Source: Eledone cirrhosa (lineage: Eukaryota). From it: DNA of 64,000 nucleotides. Position numbers and translations under genes: made by a program. Position 1 is the first letter of the stretch, and every line of letters begins with the position of its first letter. The stretch covers positions 373,426,001 through 373,490,000 of the forward strand of contig OZ024740.1 of NCBI GenBank assembly GCA_964016885.1, read 5' to 3'. Below are positions 853 to 58,837 of this stretch, one piece after another. Under the pieces are notes generated by a model that searched no databases, was not told the origin of the DNA, and worked only from the letters and a program-made list of their open reading frames with translations.

Positions 853-1099
853 CATGTGTGCATATATATATATATATATATGTGTGTGTCTGTATATGTA
901 TATATTTATATTTATATGTATATATATATATATATATATCTATATATGTGTATATATGTATATATGTGGGTATGTGTATGTATGTGTATGTATGTGTGTA
1001 TGAATATATATATATATATATATATATTTATATCTATCTATCTATCTATATATATATATTTGTATATATATGTATACATGTCTATATATGTGTATATAT

Positions 1100-1781
<682 letters not shown>

Positions 1782-20039: not shown

Positions 20040-21383
20040 ACCATTTCCCTAGTTCCCATAAATACAGTAAAATTCTGAACCCTAAAGCTATTAGACTATC
20101 TAACTCCACGGCACCAGACATTGAAGCATACATAAACAAATTAACTTAAAGCAATTAAACAACACTGCAAAACAAAATATGTTGGTAACAGATGGGCAGA
20201 ACGAAATATCTGCCTCCCAACCACTAAATGGGAGACGGGTATTACACAACCCACCAGTACTGCTATCACAACCTATCCATGGTATACCGGCTACCCACAA
20301 CAAAAAATGTAACTGCCATCTACCTGAAAGATGTCCATTGAAGAATGAATGCCTAAAGTCCAACATTGTTTACCAATGCACGGTTGAATCGAACGACCAG
20401 ATATGGTATTACATCGGATCTACCACCACCTCGTTTAAATCTCGCTGGTACCGTCAACGATTCTCAATCAAACATCCTGATCACCGTTTTGTGACCACGC
20501 TCGCCAACAAGACTTGGCAACTCCGTGAACGCAACCAACAGTTCACCTTAAAATGGGATATACTTTCCAGCGCAAGTGCATATCGGAGTGGATTGAAGTA
20601 CTGCAGGTTATGTAACCCTGAACTCTTTTACATATTAAAATCCAAAAAATAAACTACTTAACGATAGAATCGCACGATCATTATACTGCAACCACAAACT
20701 AAAAGCTAAATTCTCTCATTATAAAATAACTCAACATTCGCACCCATAACTATAACATCGCTTTCTAGCTAACCACCTTCCCCCACACTACAAGACAAAA
20801 CCCTACTTATCACTATAAATGGTAACTCAGTGCAATTCGTAGATTACTACTACGAACCCAAAGTTCACCCACCCTATAACTTCGTCTGTCCCTTCTCTAT
20901 CTCTCCCTCTATATCCATTCCACCCTCTCTCTGTCGCCTTTGACCTACCTCCCTCCCTCTCCACATCTATGAACCTGCCCTCTGGGGCAATAAATAATTC
21001 CAACCTTGACTATCAACGTATCTCTCTAAAAGTAACCCGTATAATAAAACCCCTACCATAACATATTGATTAAGATATCTACAAACCACTCTCTCCTATT
21101 TCTCCAACCCCTGCATATCTTTCTCTCTCTCTCCTTCTCCCCTACTTTTCTTTCTTCCTTTTCTACTCTATCTTCTCCAATAACCTCACTTAAGGGTATT
21201 TACATTGTACATTTTAACCATTCTGCTCTGATGATACAGTGGTCACAGCATTTGATATTTGAGTTCTGCAAATAGTTGAAAATGTGCACATAGCATAGCT
21301 AGGCTGTATTACCACAGTGGAAACATTTGTAAGCACACGGAATAAATTACCTTTTTTATGATGTCTACCTGTTATTATTCATT

Positions 21384-21385
<2 letters not shown>
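20040..21385 (+). mobile_element. Neptune-type PLE 3' part; GIY-YIG ORF at 20179-20652
   Basis: KKCNCHLPERCPLKNECLKSNIVYQCTV...YYIGSTTTSFKSRWYRQ...TTLANKTWQL...FTLKWDIL...CRLCNPE. Confidence 0.9.
21224..21335 (+). ncRNA. Hammerhead ribozyme with about 85-nt stem II
   Basis: TGCT-CTGATGA-[..GTGGT.ACAGC...GCTGT..ACCAC..]-GAAAC-attt-GTA-AGCA, followed by AATAAA. Confidence 0.8.
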
Positions 21386-21482
<97 letters not shown>

Positions 21483-22407: not shown

Positions 22408-23364
22408 TAATGTATGACGAAGAAATATGACAATATATAAACAACCATCCGGTTATCGAACCAACCAACACACTGGAAATTTATAATAAATTAAAGTGAA
22501 AACCGTCAGGTGCGTGGCGTGTGTTTTTATTAGCAAGAAGACCTTGCTAATAATTAAAAAATGAAATATATATATCTATATTTATATATAAAGGTTTAAA
22601 TATATATATATACAAATATACATACATACATATACGTGTTTTGTAACGGGTCACTTTGTGGCTCAATGAAAAGTTAATAAATTAAATAATCAGAGCTATA
22701 TATCATAAAACATGTTTATAGAATCACCAGATAAAATATATACCATTTCCTATCCCAATTAGCATAATTAACTATATAAAAAATCGAATAGACCAGGCTA
22801 TAAGAATAAGGCTTCTATGAAGAAATCTCCAACAAATAACCGAAATCTCCAACAAATAACCGAAACTGGCGATTACGCTGTCGAAATATTCGATAAACAT
22901 TCCGTCGCCGCCGACGCGAAGGTCTTGTTTCGGTTATTTGTTGGAGATTTCTTCATAGAAGCCTTATTCTTATAGCCTGGTCTATTCGATTTTTTATATA
23001 GTTAATTATGCTAATTGGGATAGGAAATGGTATATATTTTATCTGGTGATTCTATAAACATGTTTTATGATATATAGCTCTGATTATTTAATTTATTAAC
23101 TTTTCATTGAGCCACAAAGTGACCCGTTACAAAACACGTATATGTATGTATGTATATTTGTATATATATATATTTAAACCTTTATATATAAATATAGATA
23201 TATATATTTCATTTTTTAATTATTAGCAAGGTCTTCTTGCTAATAAAAACACACGCCACGCACCTGACGGTTTTCACTTTAATTTATTATAAATTTCCAG
23301 TTTGTTGGTTGGTTCGATAACCGGATGGTTGTTTATATATTGTCATATTTCTTCGTCATACATT
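22408..23364. repeat. Near-perfect inverted repeat with about 440-bp arms (Rz-C fragment plus PLE pLTR)
   Basis: 22408-22866 is the reverse complement of 22927-23364, apart from a 20-bp tandem duplication at the inner end of the left arm. Confidence 0.9.
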
Positions 23365-28705: not shown

Positions 28706-28721
28706 TATATACATATATATA

Positions 28722-30647
28722 AAGACTCCCATGGGAAGGTGGATTGGGTGGACCAAAGCTATACGGACCCCCCAAAACAATTAACAGGTAAGAAAAAAGG
28801 TCGCACATGCAATAGGGTCTAGTATCAAAACTACCCTAAAGGGCCACATATTTAAGTTCAACGAGAAGATCTACACCCAAAATGAGGGACCAGCCATCGG
28901 CGTCAGCATAGCTGGTGATGTTGCCAACCTTTTCATGGTATGGTGGGAAAGGAGACTTAAAGATCTCCTTAATGAGAGCTCCATAGACCTCATCATGTAC
29001 TCTCGTTATGTAGACGATTTCAATATAGTTATAAGAACACCCCCTCAAGAGAGCACTAACAAGTTCGATTTAGAACGTAGCACGATGTAAAGCATCCAGC
29101 AGATAGCTAATTCCATACACCAGAGTATAACTGTAACTATCGACTTCCCTTCCAAATACCCTAACAATAGACTACTTGTAATAGACACAGAACTCTGGGT
29201 TAACACTATAGACGAGAGAGACCAAATTCTCCACTCACACTATGCTAAACCCATGGCCTCCAAATACCTGATACTCAAAAACTAAGCAATTTCCAGTACT
29301 GCTAAGTTTAATATTCTGATCGCAGATTTGGTACGAGTGATGAAGAATGTGTCCCGCATGTGCGACCCAACAGAAATGGAAAGACACATCCAACACTTCA
29401 TCGACCGCATGCAGTTCTCTGGCTACAACCAAAGAGTCAGTGTCAGTGCATACGAAGGAGCCATGGAAAAGTATAAGACCATCATAGAACTGGACATGAA
29501 AGGAATTTTCCCATTATACAGGAGCAAATCATGGAATAGCTTAGATAGGCTAGACATGAGATAGGGAAAGCCATCTCATTGTACGACAACCAGAGATACA
29601 AGAGCGTCATGTTTGTGGACGCTACCCCTGGGGGGAAATTAGCTAACCAGTGTAGAAAGGCCCTGAGAAAGACCCACTTAAAAATAAGGTGGTAGAAAAT
29701 CCAGAAACCACCATAAAATCCCTGATCAGCAAAACCTACCCTTTTAAGAAAATCCACTGTACCAATAGGAAATGTATCATATGTAAGGTGAATCCTCGGA
29801 TAAACTGTAAAATTAGAAACGTAGTCTATAGCATAAGATGTACTGAGGGTACTTGCAGAAACATGACGACAACATACATAGGTGAGACAGCTCGTAGCAT
29901 AGGTGAAAGGATAGACCAACACTGGGGGGAACTAAAAGGACGAAAACACGGGTCAGTACTATACAATCATGCTAGACAAAACATGACGGTAACATAGACA
30001 ACATAGACAATTAGAATAATATCTAAACATAGAAATGACCCAGCAGATAGACAAATCGGAGAGACCAGTGAAATAGAAATTAGAAGGCCAAGGCTAAACA
30101 GAAAGAATGAATGGAATAACAACAACACCCAAACAAACAACACTGACCTAAGAGAAGTATAAATAAGTAAATAAAATAAAATACATAAATACATAAATAC
30201 ATACACAAGCACAATAACAACAAGCACTTAAACACACACTAGTTACCCATCACACAGCAAACAAAACACTATACACACACGCAAACGCATGCGCAAAGAA
30301 GACAGAAAAAATAAAATAAACAAACAAGCAAATAAATAAATACATATATAGACATACTGAATAAAAATGGTGTAGACATACAATACATCAGGAGGAAAAT
30401 ATAACACCACTGACGTAGTTGCAGATGTGCAACGAAAGATTTATGATAAACTATATATATGTGTTTGTGTCTATATTGTATCTGTATTATTTTTGATAGT
30501 CGGTCAGTCAATGGCAACATTGAGGACCGAGTAAGTTAGATTACCATATAAAAGACACAGAAGCGAGAAGCGAAAACCAACCAAACACTGAGTGTGTATT
30601 GTTATTAATTCTTGCAATATTACACGAATAAGACCCTCCCCAAGTAT

Positions 30648-30650
<3 letters not shown>
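28722..30650 (+). mobile_element. PLE family P3 (RT, GIY-YIG and pLTR), decayed; possibly Naiad-like
   Basis: QNEGPAIGVSIAGDVANLFMVWW, YSRYVDD, HYAKPMASKY, CTNRKCIICKVNPRINCKIRNVVYSIRC..TYIGETARSIGERIDQH. Hammerhead at 30406-30447. Clade assignment is tentative. Confidence 0.92.
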
Positions 30651-30694
<44 letters not shown>

Positions 30695-30698
<4 letters not shown>

Positions 30699-30874
30699 GT
30701 AAGTACGCATGTATACGTACATACATATATGTATACAGACGTACAGTAGCATGCACATATATATATATATATATACATATATACATACATATGCATACAG
30801 GTACACATACATATATGCACGTATCAGTTTAGCGGCGCTATATATGTATGTGTACCTGTATGCATATGTATGTA

Positions 30875-30908
<34 letters not shown>

Positions 30909-36749: not shown

Positions 36750-39205
36750 ATATTGTTATACTTGGGGAGGGTCATATTTGTGTAATATTGCCAGAATTAA
36801 TAACAGAACACACTCACTGTCTGGTTGGTTTTCGCTTTTCCTTCTGTGTCTTTTATATCGGTAACCTAATTTACTCGGTCCTCAATGTTGCCATTGATTG
36901 ACCGACGGTCAAAAATAATACAGTTACACTATGGACACAAACACATATATATAGTTTATCATAAATCTTTCGTTGCACATCTGCAACATCGTCAGTGGTG
37001 CTATTATTTCCTCCCGTTGTATTGTATGTTTACGCCATTTTTATTCAGTCTGTCCATATATTTATTTATTTATTTGCTTATTTGTTTATTTTATTTTGTC
37101 TTCTTGGCTCATGCGTTCGCGTCTGTGTATAGTGTTTTGTTTGATTTGTGATGTGTGTTCTTGATTGGATGACTAGTGTGTATTTATGTGCTTGTGTATG
37201 TATGTATTTATTTATTTATTTATTGTATTTTATTTACTTATTTATACGTCTCTTAGGTCATTGTTGTTTGTTTGGGCGTTGTTGTTATTCCATTCATTCT
37301 TTCTGTTTAGTCTTGGTCTTCTAAGTTCTATTTCACTGGCCTCTCTGCTTTGCCTATCTGCTGGGTCATTTCTATCTTTAGATATTATTCTAATTTTCTA
37401 TGTTGTCTATGTTGCCGTCATGTTGTTGTCTAGCATGTTCGTATAGTACTGACCCGTGTTTTCGTCCTTTTAGTTCCCCCCAGTGTTGGTGTATCCTTTC
37501 ACCTATGCTACGAGCTGTGTCACCTGTTGTTGTCATGTTTCTGCAAGTACCCTCTGTACATCTTATGCTATAGACTACATTTCTAGTTTTATAGTTTATC
37601 CGGGGGTTTACCTTACATATGATACATTTCCTATTGTTACAGTGGGTCTTCTTAAAAGGGTGGGTTTTGCTGATCGAGCATTTTATGGTAGGTTCCTGTC
37701 TTTTCTACCACCTTAATTTTTAAGTGGGTTTTTCTCAGGGCCTTTCTACACTGGTTAGCTAATTTCCCTCCAGGGGTAGCGTCCACAAACATGACACTCT
37801 GGTATCTCTGGTTGTCGTAACATGAGGTGGCTTTCCCTAACTTATGTCTAGCCCTATCTAAGCTCTTCTATGATTTGCTCCTGTATAATGGGCAAATTCC
37901 TTTCATGTCCAGTTCTATGAGGGTCTTATACTTCTCCATGGCTCCTTTGTATACTCTGACTGTGTCTCTTTGGTTGTAGCCAGAGAACTGCATGCGGTTA
38001 ATGAAGTGTTGGATGTGTCTTTCCATTTCTGTTGGGTCGCACATGCGGGACACATTCTTCATCACTCGTACTAAATCTGCGATCAGAATATTAAACTTAG
38101 CAGTACTAGACATTGCTGAGTTTTTGCGTATCACGTATTTGGAGGCCATGGGTTTAGCATAGTGTGAGTGGAGAATTTGGGCTCTCTCGTCTATAGCGTT
38201 AATCCAGAGTTCTGTGTCTAATACAGGTAGTCTATTGTTAGGGTGTTTGGAAGGGAAGTCGATAGTTACAGTTATACTCTGGTGTATGGAATTAGCTATC
38301 TGCTGGATGCTTTCCATTGTTCTACGTTCTAAATCAAACGTGTTAGTGCTCTCTAGTGGGGATTTCCTTATAACTATATTGATATCGTCTACATAACGAG
38401 AGTACATGATGAGGTCTATGGAGCTCTCATTAAGGAGATCTTTAAGTCTCCTTTCCCACCATACCATGAAAAGGTTGGCAACATCACCGGCTATGCTGAC
38501 GCCAATGGCTGCTCCCTCATTTTTGGTGTAGATCTTACGTTGAACTTAAATATGAGGCCCTTTAGGGTAGTTTTGATACTAGCCCCTATTGCATGTGCGA
38601 CCATTTTTCTTACCTGATCATTGTTTTGGGGGGTCCGTATAGCTTTGGTCCACCCAATCCACTTTCCCATGGGAGTCCTTTTTGCCATTGAGGTTATGGT
38701 GGAGGTCTACCTCTTATGGGTCTACTAGGGCAGAAACGTCTAAGGTCATGACGGTCTAGGTAGTCAGTGTCGTAGGTAAGTCTAAGTAGGAGGCCCAATT
38801 CGTCTGTGTCAACGTCGCAGAACTCCACCTCACACTCAACGATCAACTCCATACATTTTTCCACAGCAAAATCAATGTTAATGGATGGGTACAATGACAC
38901 CACATCCATGCTGCCTATTATACAGTTGGATAGGTTCCTCTTTTTGCTGAACTCACTGATTCTGCTGAGGAGGTCCTCTGTACTGTCACATACATCTGGG
39001 GACATCTTGATTATGGGGCGTATAACCCATATTGAGAGGAAGTAGGAGATCCTGTAGTTACTAGCTATATTAGCTCCGCATACGGGTCTTGTTGGTGGTC
39101 CTGTTGTCGGGTCGTCGACTGTCTTGTGGACTTTGAGGAGCCCATACAAGGGTGGTATGCCATTGTTAGACGCCTGGAAGTTGTTGGCAGTGCGTCTGCT
39201 TGGCA
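36750..39205 (-). mobile_element. PLE family P3, longest copy (RT palm to pLTR), frameshifted
   Basis: YGLLKVHK..PPTRPVCGAN, IIGSMDVVSLYPSI, YSRYVDDINI, DFPSKHPNNRLPVLD. Hammerhead at 36958-36999. Ends in MTLPKYNNI. Confidence 0.93.
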
Positions 39206-39952
39206 GCTCTATGAAGAATTAATAAAGTAAAAAATCAGAGCATTATGTTGCAACATGTATATATCTATAACTTTATGTATGTGTTAACATTTATATTTAA
39301 TAATCTCCCAATAGGTTGAGATTAAATTTGGCGATATTTGGCTGCGCTTTCTAGCAGGAAGCCTACCCGCCGTAAGCAACCGATCACATCCTTTCTCTCT
39401 GGCTTGTCCACAGCCAGATAGCGTAGCTTAGCCATTTTTGAATCTATTTTTGGCGGGATCGGATTGAAAAACTAGATGTCTGATTTTGAGTTTGTGTCCT
39501 GATGAATCCTAACTCAGGACATTCCTATTATTTGGATGTCTAAAATAAGGAAGAAACCATTGTAGAGATATAATTACGGTAGCTGCGCATTTCTTCTAAG
39601 TTAAATTTTACACCTAATTGTGTATGGTTGATGGTATATTTAGTCAGTTTCTACATGCTGTCGAAATGTTGGATACATACTCGATTGAGGCCGCCGCGAA
39701 GAGACTACGTTCGGTTATTTGTCGGAGATTCCCCCATAAGAGCATTTATTCTTATAGCTTGTTCTGATTGATTTTTTATATGGTTAGTTATGCTAATTAA
39801 AAGAAGAAATAGTATATATTTTATTATGTGATGATTTAAAAGACATGATTTATGATATAATGCTCTGTTTTTTTAATTTATTAATTATTCATAGAGCTTA
39901 AAAGTGACCAGTTGCAACAATTATATATCTATAACTTTATGTATATGTTAAC

Positions 39953-39960
<8 letters not shown>
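39205..39960 (+). mobile_element. Rz-C complete unit (664-nt period) with short 5'-inverted piece; hammerhead at 39494-39569
   Basis: GTTGCAACA..TATATCTATAACTTTATGTAT.TGTTAAC occurs at 39247 and 39911. 39205-39246 is the reverse complement of about 39857-39900. Motif: GTGTC-CTGATGA-aTCCT[hairpin]AGGAa-GAAAC-catt-GTA-GAGAT. Confidence 0.8.
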
Positions 39961-39984
<24 letters not shown>

Positions 39985-39988
<4 letters not shown>

Positions 39989-42465
39989 TTTCTCTCCTTC
40001 TTCTGTTCCTTCCACCCCTCCCTCTACTTCACCGCCTCTATCTCCACCACCCTCGTCCACTTCTTAGACATCTCCGTCGCCTTCGCTCCCTCCCACCACT
40101 CCCTCGTCACCTACACCTTCTTCAAACCCACCGGCTCCCACTCCTACCTCGACTTCACCTCTTACCACCTACACACCCTAAACACTCTATTTCCTACTCC
40201 CAACTCCTCAGGATTCGCCGCCTATGTAGCCGAGATGCTGACTTTGAGTCCCAGGCCCTTTCCCTAGACAGCCATTTCATCCGAAGAGGTTACCCCCTCT
40301 CCCGTCCACACCACTCTCACCCACGCCCGTGCTGTCCACCGCTCCACCACCCTCGCCCACGCCACCGCACACTCATCCACCGTCTCCCCTTCCCCATCAT
40401 ATATCCCCCTCCACCACACCCCTCCACCGCACCATCCTCCGATTCCAGTCCGACCCCTCCACCTCCGACATCTTCCCAGCCCCACCACTCCCCTCCTTCA
40501 AACGCGCACGCAATCTCCGAACCCTCCTCATCCACAGCTCCCTACCACCAACCACCCCGGTTACCTTCCCTGTTGCAGGCCCCGTTGCAACACCTGTCCC
40601 CACATCACCAACACCACCACCTTCCAGGGTCCCAACGGCCACTCTCTCTCTGTCCGGCATGCATTCCGCTCCAACCTAGTCTACGGTTTTCGTTGCACGG
40701 AGTTCAGCGCAACCTACGTCGGACAGACTGGACGTCGCCTGGCGGACCGGTTTACCGAACACCTCCGAGATATTCGTCTCGGTGGTAGTTCCCCCATCAC
40801 CCGCTACTTTGGTGCCCCTGGACATTCCGCACACCACCTCACAGTCTGTGGCCTACTCCAATGCCACGGAACACTCGCCACTCTCCTCAGGGTCGAACAA
40901 CGAACCATCTTCACTCTACAGATCCACACTCCCACCGGCCTGAACTCCCCACCCTTATTCCTTTAGTCTTAGACAACCCCTCCCCCCCCCCCCCCTTCCC
41001 CACACACATATCCCACACTACCACCACTAACACACATCTTTTTTTCACCGCCCATCCCAAAAATAACAATACTAACATCTCCAGCCCACACCCGACCACC
41101 CTTCCCCAACTAACATACTAACATCCCTCTCTTCTTCTCCCCCCTCTCCTTATCACACGCACACACCCACCGGTACATATATACACGCGCTCACACTAAA
41201 CACACACGCTACTACCACTACTAACCCTCACCCCACACATACACTCCACCACCCCGCAACTAACATCACTAACACCCCACGCACACGAACACACACACCC
41301 ACGTACACCACCCACTCTACACGCAACTAACATCACTAACATCCCCCCAATGCTACGCATATGAACACACCCACCCACTTACACCATCCACTCTACACTC
41401 CCTCCAGCGGCCCCACACCCTTCTCCCTCCGCTCCACCAACACCCTTTCTCACACACACACACATCCCACTAACACCTCTACTAATACACATACAGCCCC
41501 TCCTCACTCCAACTTTCACACCTACCCATCCTCTCCCCTGTCCACCGCACCTCCGCACACACTGACACACAGACTTTCTTCACTTACCATTCTACCCGAC
41601 CGCTGATTTGCCCTTATCTCTGACCACCTCCCAGCACACACAGACACAGAACCCTCCTCCTGCCTTGACCCTCTGACCACTTCCTGTTGCGCGCGCACCC
41701 CACATCTCCCCTTTCCGACCAACCCAACCACGGATTACACATATTGAACATCGATCCCTAGATTCCACCACATCCCAAGGATATTACCCAGCATTCCACC
41801 ACATCCTCTACGGAACCTCCTTAAGGACTCACCCACTGATATCCACTCAAAAAACATGTTTTTCCCACACGCCACCTACATCCACAACACGCATAAACGC
41901 CACACACACACGTGCGTACCACCACATATTTACACACTCAGCCTCCGGAATCTTCTCCCCCCACCCTTCTGATCCCTACCATCCACACACGCACACTCAC
42001 ACCGACCTACACCCCACCCCACACACAGCTCTTCCTGAACATGCAACCCCGTTCTTCCCCCAACTCTTACTTTCACATACACACACACACACGCACACAC
42101 ACACGCACACCACCTTCAGCTCTCCCCGCTCAGACACCCTGCCTTCCTCTCCCCACTCCACCCGCCACCACGCCTACACGCCACACACCCTTCCACCATC
42201 TGTTTCACTTCATGTTTATTTTTGTTTTTATTATGCTTTTATATTTAATTTAATTTGTACCGTTTCCCCTCAGCCCATTTTTCCTATATGTCTCTCTACC
42301 ACTCCCCTACACACCCTTGGAACTCTCTTCCCACACACGTTTCACCTGAAGAAGGGCTTGTGCCCGAAACGGCGTTCCCCACCATCACCCCCCTCTCAAG
42401 AGCATGAAACTATTAAACCTTTGTTCGTAGTGCCTCTCTGTTTTGTTCCCGTTCAATTTTTTACT
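39985..42465 (+). mobile_element. PLE 3' half (RT thumb, GIY-YIG, long C-rich 3' UTR); hammerhead core at 42346-42370
   Basis: FLDISV..FFKPTGSHSYLDF..YSQLLRIRRLCS; SFKRARNLRTLL; NLVYGFRC..TYVGQTGRRLADRFTEHLRDI. Motif: CTGAAGA-a-GGGC-ttgt-GCCC-GAAAC. Confidence 0.9.
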
Positions 42466-51164: not shown

Positions 51165-51555
51165 TTTATCGTCTCCGCTGAACCGGTGCGTACTCACACT
51201 CTATGCAAATTAGTCTGCCCACTACTAATTTTCATAGAAAAAGCATATAACGATATGTGCTTTTACAATTCTCCAGAAGGGCCGGTAGATAGGTAAATAT
51301 TGCTGATGAGTTGTAACAACAACGAAACTAGTTCAATATTCCTTGTCTGGCTTTCTGGAGAATAGAGGGAAGGTGTTCCCCCGAAAACCAGTATGACTCT
51401 AAAAACCGGTTTGTCTGTGTGTTTACATACAGAATAGCTGGGTTGCTCACAGTAAAGCAGCCAGTGAAAGACTTGTTACACCTACATATGTATACGTGTG
51501 TGTATTCATATACACACTAGTATTTCAGTATGCATATGTAGATGTACATTTTTAA
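51160..51555 (+). mobile_element. Divergent Rz-A relative
   Basis: Same motif order as Rz-A: TTTATCGT, ACTCAC, ATGCAAATTAG, hammerhead, GTTTACA, TA/TG-rich tail. Confidence 0.7.
51296..51340 (+). ncRNA. Minimal type-I hammerhead, intact
   Basis: AATATTG-CTGATGA-GTTGT-aaca-ACAAC-GAAAC-TA-GTT-CAATATT. Confidence 0.9.
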
Positions 51556-58359: not shown

Positions 58360-58710
58360 AAATGACAATCCGAAGGCAAGGTAACATTCCAATCATTTTA
58401 ATCACGACACATGTTTCATTAAGAGATAGATCGATCGTGAAGCCATGATCAATTATCACTAATCTCATCAGGTGAAAATGAATTGTCTTCAAATTCTTGA
58501 CATGAGGGAGAAAATTAGCAATGTTCACTCACAGAGTTTATTCCCTCATATATGAGTGAACATATCAAGAATTTGAAGACAATTTATTTTCACCTGATGA
58601 TATCAGTGATAATTGATCATTGCCTCACGATCGATCTATCTGTTATTGAAACATGTGTCGTAATTAAAATGATTAAAATTTTACCTTGCCTTCGGATTTT
58701 CATTTTGATA
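58358..58710. mobile_element. Head-to-head pLTR pair, each with a complete long-stem-II hammerhead: 58402-58475(-) and 58590-58663(+)
   Basis: TCAC-CTGATGA-[47 nt]-GAAAC-ATGT-GTC-GTGA/GTAA. Arms 58358-58504 / 58561-58710. Confidence 0.8.
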
Positions 58711-58837
58711 GTAATACTCCGTTTTACATCATCTAGCTGTTCCGTTGACATTTGAAAACGTGGAGAACTGAATATTGGTAACAAAAATGTATTGGACCGT
58801 TTTGCACAACCACTAATACACCTTATTATATAACAAC

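Follow-up and report, generated by a model that had tools for sequence, protein, structure and literature searches.

A 664-nt retrozyme with a long-stem-II hammerhead in Eledone cirrhosa and its probable mobilisation by a Hydra-clade Penelope-like element

Animal retrozymes that lack long terminal repeats (non-LTR retrozymes) were given a range of 150–450 bp by Cervera and de la Pena 2020 (PMC7229834), and of 51–972 bp with a mean of 650 bp in ray-finned fishes in bioRxiv 10.64898/2026.07.22.740005, where their link to Penelope elements is so far a hypothesis from co-occurrence and repeat homology (published texts are cited throughout for the sections that bear on the point named). Tails, tandems and inversions are marks of Penelope-like elements, PLEs (PMC8557442); a Penelope-like enzyme started in vitro at two internal sites around a stem-loop, thus making tails, and in that study the Penelope hammerhead left insertion in vitro unaffected and reads ending at the ribozyme site were lacking (PMC11167929). 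The element described here is a 664-nt unit (positions 39247–39910, + strand; phase arbitrary, the repeat being head-to-tail) in a stretch of 64,000 nt of Eledone cirrhosa DNA (assembly GCA_964016885.1, contig OZ024740.1, positions 373,426,001–373,490,000, forward strand), below called the window. By every feature examined it is a non-LTR retrozyme; that a PLE mobilises it is hardly in doubt, and the reading put forward, with a probability of about 0.75, is copying in trans by a Hydra-clade Penelope-like reverse transcriptase (RT)/endonuclease predicted to bind a bulged hairpin of the RNA.

The 664-nt unit had been proposed in a first-pass annotation of the window and was borne out; its period is closed by a 53-nt repeat (39247–39299 versus 39911–39963, 90.6% identical), the second copy being the first 53 nt of a further unit (39911–39963, +) that stops at a fixed 3' site, site B, and adjoins the target, a (TA)n microsatellite (39964–39986, no strand). 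The terminal redundancy of about 50 nt noted at first pass thus exists, not as a fixed terminal feature; it reflects copying from a fixed internal start past one unit, with copying that set out from site B and went on for 1.08 units. The start formerly placed at 39205 was abandoned: 39205–39246 (−) is an inverted 42-nt piece of the 3' part of the unit (unit positions 611–652, the conserved hairpin), a Penelope-type 5' inversion. The unit had also been called unusually large, which holds only against the range of PMC7229834 and not against that of the preprint. The longest reading frame of the doubled (circularised) unit has 62 codons, hence no protein-coding capacity. Two related copies were located in the window: 1070–1684 (+), a 5'-truncated copy of a 686-nt unit whose site A end runs into (TA)n, 68% identical to the window unit across 631 nt (the diverged copy formerly given as 1100–1680), and 22877–23207 (+), a 3' half, 76% identical to the subfamily of the window unit, standing head-to-head with its own inverted 3' part at 22566–22844 (−).

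The search of the 3.0-Gb genome scores the best candidates only; the best 40 of 3,317 candidates were 94–100% identical. The element is a non-coding tandem of 660–690 nt, whose copies number in the thousands and fall into at least 25 subfamilies (unit length 664 nt in C1, the subfamily of the window unit; 686 nt in C2, that of the copy at 1070–1684; 659 nt in C3), between which homology spans the whole unit at about 70% identity. Direct head-to-tail runs without spacer were found in at least four subfamilies; contig C18 (contig numbers are independent of subfamily names) carries a tandem run at exact 664-nt spacing, including runs of identical units, and contig C1 an array of about 43 units, estimated from its span, at 92.99–93.02 Mb. 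The unit was not seen to belong to a longer coding element, the objection foreseen at first pass: no coding frame enters the unit or is continuous with it among loci L001–L165; a coding parent sought in the loci of another family, D, was not found, and no extended similarity to the unit turned up in 13 Hydra-type 3' regions. The pattern of the long-stem-II hammerhead had 5,332 matches in the genome versus 15 for the reversed control; a hand count of the first 100 gave 52 for this family, 44 for family D and 4 for others. Clustering of 127 distinct motifs from the fetched loci gave 32 clusters, 27 of which were kept as subfamily representatives; of the five dropped, two were unrelated, one had been parsed wrongly, one bore a deletion and one nearly duplicated another.

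Hammerhead fold: the type I hammerhead of the window C1 copy (39493–39570, +; two private substitutions) consists of stem I (39493–39498/39565–39570), core (39499–39505), stem II (39506–39552), GAAA (39553–39556) and a short palindromic stem III, with the predicted cut between 39564 and 39565; that of the C2 copy (1297–1386, +) has G–C at the stem II base and a closable stem III, with the predicted cut between 1380 and 1381. The core is accompanied by a GUA site in both (39562–39564 and 1378–1380). Stem II, of 47–59 nt, is built of a basal helix of 4–5 bp, an internal loop and a distal helix. Both basal helices named at first pass are present (1316–1320/1360–1364; 39507–39510/39548–39551); the inner helices then named are present too (1334–1339/1344–1349; 39517–39522/39536–39541), but are different parts of one distal helix. 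The branched stem II proposed with them was rejected, a multiloop appearing in 0 of 27 stem II folds; the structure is a long helix with an internal loop. The expectation that standard hammerhead models would miss it proved right: Rfam matched no hammerhead in a sound C1 copy and scored the C2 copy at 1304–1385 with 13.1 bits, where the cut-off is 52; the gathering cut-off of the hammerhead clan CL00010 was not reached. As this ribozyme shows, retrozymes are undercounted by surveys with descriptors and Rfam.

Covariation, the check suggested by the first-pass annotation, was present in the 27 representatives and, together with the short reading frames, supports its retrozyme-like unit with an atypical hammerhead: pseudoknot included, 92.7% of cells were paired, 11 of 20 pairs showed two-sided change, none of 500 shuffles reached the observed pairing, and shifting the partners lowered pairing to 30–49%. 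On a tree built from the flanks without ribozyme columns (26 of 27 rows), stem II pair 3 underwent two-sided change twice independently; independent-pairs tests on this tree had too few events for significance. Ten of the 27 leave base pair 10.1–11.1, adjacent to the core, unpaired; published Hydra-element hammerheads, too, often lack pairing at a position of the stem II base (PMC8557442, supplement), and U–U at this place was reported in PMC3088659 and PMC7229834. Stem III of C1, C3 and C4 is palindromic and has a loop of 2 nt, which makes it of the dimer-dependent type in PMC4209133, and it does not form in the predicted folds; in the C2 copy, with its closable stem III, the hammerhead is the best predicted fold. 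In the window C1 copy the hammerhead fold lies 8.1 kcal/mol above the best fold, and its private changes at 39496 (stem I) and 39561 (stem III) do not occur together in the other copies of the subfamily compared; this copy is probably decayed.

A pseudoknot is predicted between a 5' strand upstream of stem I (39488–39492, +) and the internal loop of stem II (39511–39515, +). Its fourth pair across the 27 representatives is U–A in 15, C–G in 8 and U–G in 4, and mispaired in none; an unrelated 523-nt family, E, has a version of 5–6 bp with A–U at this pair. Contacts of this kind between stems I and II are common in hammerheads (PMC3088659, PMC10085705; for background, PMC6765202), and the alignment makes the pseudoknot probable.

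3' ends, targets and insertion structure: site A (unit position 613; sequence ending at it, 39840–39859, +) and site B lie about 100 nt apart, and 90 of 100 scored 3' ends in three subfamilies fall at one or the other, 80 of these 90 being followed by a TA repeat. The 5' ends are variable, often truncated and inverted, and no layout of LTR and primer site was seen; insertions lie in (TA)n, where target-site duplications would be masked. Units of one insertion share rare variants 5–10 times more than separate loci do, which fits rolling-circle copying and also homogeneous multimers. A C2 insertion of 2.5 units (L037/L041) starts at the cut site and retains two internal ribozymes; linear multimers were therefore used.

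Shared hairpin: between sites A and B lies a bulged hairpin (39862–39897, +), with a bulge of 2 nt and beginning two to three bases past site A, which is a predicted recruitment signal for RT. It recurs in non-coding families without other similarity and in a coding Hydra-type PLE; its pattern had 25,035 matches in the genome versus 104 for the control. Across 24 sequence groups, not all of them independent families, one pair of the hairpin takes C–G, U–A and U–G, and a second takes A–U, U–A, C–G and G–C, being paired in 22 of the 24. In the coding Hydra-type family the hairpin lies 3 nt past the family's own site A: at locus L295 the RT/GIY-YIG frame runs unbroken into a repeat with hammerhead, site A, hairpin and site B; 12 copies bridge the coding end through the hairpin at 95–100% identity, and 7 more end at site A, 3 nt before the hairpin. 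Two further Hydra-type families stop, by eye, just before related hairpins. The downstream regions of the top 30 GIY-YIG loci, all Neptune-like by motif, contain the hairpin in none.

Hydra-type partner: locus L344 holds an unbroken frame of 832 codons with an RWK-like RWR, DKT, a CxCX5C linker, CxxC and CxH at the endonuclease end and without CCHH, the motifs that section 11 of PMC8557442 gives for the (TA)n-targeting Hydra clade; the repeat of L344/L295 has a hammerhead (core variant at position 4) and a (TA)n insertion, as in that clade, and its tandem period of 4.1–4.2 kb is longer than the clade length described there (under about 3 kb). Assignment of L344/L295 to the Hydra clade would follow protein motifs, not a tree; Pfam gave no more than weak RT/GIY-YIG scores for these elements. 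The position of the hairpin in this family makes it likely that a Hydra-type partner acts through it. Variation of the core at position 4, with C or A in place of U, is seen in the coding elements at L295:690–710, L309 and L322. In the window, 20307–21390 (+) is the 3' part of a Hydra-type PLE; stem II of its hammerhead, near 21228, is 85 nt long and folds with a true three-way branch, the fold z being only −0.11. An irregular array with 0.9–2 kb spacing on contig C1 (5853400–5863000, L287) carries the hairpin in minimal form; nearby, no hammerhead was found.

5' ends at the predicted cut: the tallies below are hand counts of the matches listed, partly extrapolated from the first 100, except for the 40-locus C2 set. 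A 17-nt anchor just past the predicted cut of C2 had 399 matches (a set of 95, all listed, and a set of 304, 100 listed). From the set of 95, 40 of the 41 visibly truncated loci were fetched: 30 start at +1/+2, 3 are ambiguous and 7 start at −4 to −13; the +1/+2 excess against an even spread has a binomial p of about 1e-18. Among the 100 matches listed of the set of 304, 5 start at the cut (about 45 of 399 by extrapolation), and a second C2 anchor gave about 28 of 461, so that 6–11% of C2 copies start at the cut or one base after; a control site 65 nt downstream had 0 of 100 5' ends. Subfamilies with dimer-type stem III gave 2/100 (C4), 1/100 (C3) and 2–3/100 (C1). At most +1 junctions the first base is preceded by T, where the element has A; TA microhomology therefore does not explain them. 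The pattern of C2, the sole monomer-cutting subfamily as judged from the folds, fits an RT running off a ribozyme-cut 5' end, and cleavage of C2 RNA in vivo is very likely by this genomic trace.

Proposed course of copying: tandem loci would be transcribed into multimers. In C2 the hammerhead, probably braced by the pseudoknot, would cut as a monomer; in C1, C3 and C4 it would do so only slowly or as a dimer. The Hydra protein would bind the hairpin, nick (TA)n and begin reverse transcription internally at site A or B, and copying would proceed until fall-off, inversion or a ribozyme-made 5' end. Uncleaved multimers or ligated circles would allow more than one unit to be copied, giving the 53-nt overlap, dimers and trimers. 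Words upstream of the ribozyme (39428–39460) resemble YY1-, E2F- and CCAAT-type promoter motifs and are possibly an internal polymerase II promoter; similar words recur in the Neptune-like repeats at L309, L322 and L323.

Several observations weigh against this account. Outside the hairpin no sequence similarity was found between the unit and the Hydra family; this family is therefore a likely mobiliser, not a shown ancestor. One search of RNA runs listed none with the sequence of the unit (three runs of unstated kind from one sample held many related pieces and say nothing either way on expression). About 80–90% of copies read through the cut site, and ribozyme cleavage was dispensable for insertion in vitro (PMC11167929). 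In C1 about 11 of 471 copies start at the cut, with little or no step, and 5' ends upstream of the cut are as many as those downstream; further 5' ends gather broadly between +4 and +13 (about 10% in C1, 12% in C2), largely at TA microhomology, the C2 peak being at the TA at +7. For the pseudoknot, two-sided change amounts to one event on the flank tree plus one wobble lineage, the remaining three pairs being nearly invariant. Circular folding of the whole unit was moderately better than that of shuffles (z −1.6 to −3.7).

On the form of the template, occasional use of circles is slightly favoured. The competing proposal, that the template is always a linear multimer, uncleaved or partly cleaved, and that arrays lengthen by unequal crossing-over, is a serious one, if rather the weaker: it is in line with the two internal ribozymes kept in the 2.5-unit C2 insertion starting at the cut, with the 6–11% of C2 copies that end there, which require a linear 5' end, with the finding of PMC11167929 that unprocessed RNA is the main substrate, and with the runs of identical units in the C18 array. 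It fits less well with the rare variants shared within an insertion, as one circle copied repeatedly would give, and with the accumulation of other animal retrozymes as circles (PMC7229834); moreover, without circles the number of units cannot increase during retrotransposition. As for the enzyme, a Neptune-like element, such as that joined head-to-head to the unit at 39204, might be the mobiliser instead of Hydra, since that neighbour, with its RT and GIY-YIG fragments, and several Neptune-like families also end in (TA)n, and the promoter-like words resemble, by eye, those in Neptune-like repeats; with the hairpin absent downstream in 30 of 30 top GIY-YIG loci and in all 4 Neptune-like families compared, with the head-to-head contact not repeated in the screened loci, and with the hairpin 3 nt after site A of the Hydra-type family, this is unlikely, and a Hydra-clade enzyme is preferred.

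A similarly low chance is given to the C2 5'-end peak having arisen from stalling of the enzyme at the ribozyme structure, or from an end-joining preference, and not from self-cleavage. Such an origin would agree with the further 5' ends at +4 to +12, with their peak at the TA at +7 and a similar cluster in C1; it would leave unexplained the single-base sharpness of the +1/+2 peak with its drop upstream, the TA at −2/−1 that is present yet seldom used, the 1–3 of 100 in subfamilies with equal stems I and II but dimer-type stem III, and the empty control site. That the unit is the terminal repeat (pLTR) of an autonomous PLE, seen as truncated 3' ends, is suggested by the layout of ribozyme, two ends and hairpin, which is that of a pLTR, and a rare coding parent could escape a search of best candidates; the spacer-free head-to-tail runs in at least four subfamilies, the whole-unit homology at about 70% identity between them and the absence of a coding frame into the unit among L001–L165 make it quite improbable. 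A satellite spread at the DNA level, its hammerhead-like motif being incidental, would account for the long arrays and the absence of transcript evidence, yet hardly for fixed 3' ends with variable and inverted 5' ends, (TA)n targeting, helix covariation and 5' ends at the cut; it is given almost no weight.

A wider proposal, for which the chances are about even, is a guild of unrelated ribozyme RNAs that would share the hairpin as a Hydra loading signal; their hammerheads would form an undescribed long-stem-II pseudoknotted class with stem III tuned to monomer or dimer-only cutting, recorded as 5' ends. It would cover RNAs of 660–690 nt, 523 nt and others, at some 25,000 hairpin-tagged sites. 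Among the families concerned, E is a tandem of about 2,263 candidates (L033:2030–2445; L175) with long stem II, the same predicted pseudoknot, a GUU site and the same hairpin and two ends; D (L160:3975–4085, L226–L255) is abundant as short insertions that are heavily truncated, its long-stem-II hammerhead lying no more than about 50 nt ahead of the hairpin, and neither its full unit nor its parent was found. Loci L033/L034 (contig C2, 324.749–324.764 Mb) form a large inverted duplication; on each arm are a C1 complex, a copy of family E and a Neptune-like element. The literature, with subscription papers mostly outside reach, yielded no description of the shared hairpin, of 5' ends at a hammerhead cut site or of the long-stem-II form, the last of which earlier variant surveys may hold.

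Neighbouring elements of the window: 36750–39204 (−) is a broken Neptune-like Penelope element (RT, CX4CxxC linker, CCHH GIY-YIG) joined head-to-head to the unit; a short hammerhead of its own lies at 36995, it ends in (TA)n, and it has a copy at 28721–30905 (+). The unit was rejected as part of this minus-strand neighbour, which has its own repeat and short hammerhead, and as part of the plus-strand neighbour, which lies beyond the TA run; the latter (39987–41000, +, and 42346) is a C-rich 3' fragment of another PLE; it has GIY-YIG, and a short hammerhead follows some 1.6 kb downstream. At 58360–58830 a head-to-head pair of another long-stem-II hammerhead family (58471, −; 58593, +) lies between TA runs. 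Short-stem hammerheads of other families were seen at 51285–51356 (38.6 bits on Rfam HH9), 42346, 43353, 19462, 52733, 3462 and 4964.

Comparison with known systems: the locus offers a candidate enzyme with an unbroken frame, a hairpin some 35 nt long as a candidate for loading, two sites at which priming is predicted, and sister subfamilies whose genomic traces of cleavage are measurably different. If true, the wider proposal of a guild would identify both the partner of an animal retrozyme and its cis signal, and would count as in vivo evidence for cutting of the template by Penelope-associated hammerheads. Genome-writing work would also take an interest in a portable RNA signal of such short length that loads cargo on a (TA)n-targeting retrotransposase. 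The non-LTR retrozymes of animals, as described in PMC7229834 and bioRxiv 10.64898/2026.07.22.740005, are alike in tandem units that encode no protein and carry a single type I hammerhead apiece, in a GC of 34%, the range from monomers to long arrays, proposed Penelope-like mobilisation and length; the present element differs from them in a stem II of 47–59 nt with internal loop and probable pseudoknot, missed by canonical descriptors and Rfam, in a partner link through a short hairpin and not overall pLTR homology, and in microsatellite targets and two fixed ends, and is known from DNA alone, whereas RNA and circles are known elsewhere. An RT plus GIY-YIG frame between repeats, as in an autonomous PLE, was not found in the unit.

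Hydra-clade PLEs (Craig et al. 2021, PMC8557442) are alike in (TA)n targets, tails, inverted 5'-truncated partners and a type I hammerhead whose stem III is short and palindromic and whose stem II base is loose; the unit differs in encoding nothing, the 26 published Hydra hammerheads compared have a loop 2 of 3–10 nt, and no shared cis hairpin is described in the cited sections. Plant LTR retrozymes (PMC4918200) have a similar RNA size (600–1000 nt), and differ in type III hammerheads, LTRs, a primer site and 4-bp duplications, none of which is found here. Pseudoknotted hammerheads (Perreault et al. 2011, PMC3088659) share the paired contact of stems I and II (about 40% of hammerheads) and tolerate U–U at the stem II base; here stem II is long and has a further helix as its cap, and the partner strand lies in its internal loop, an arrangement not described in the parts of that text cited. 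Poseidon PAc of Anolis (Frangieh et al. 2024, PMC11167929) is alike in reverse transcription that starts internally at two sites flanking a stem-loop, downstream of the hammerhead, these sites setting the tail seen in the genome, and in AT-rich targets; PAc is autonomous and of another clade, and in contrast to the lack of reads at its ribozyme site, C2 copies often start there.

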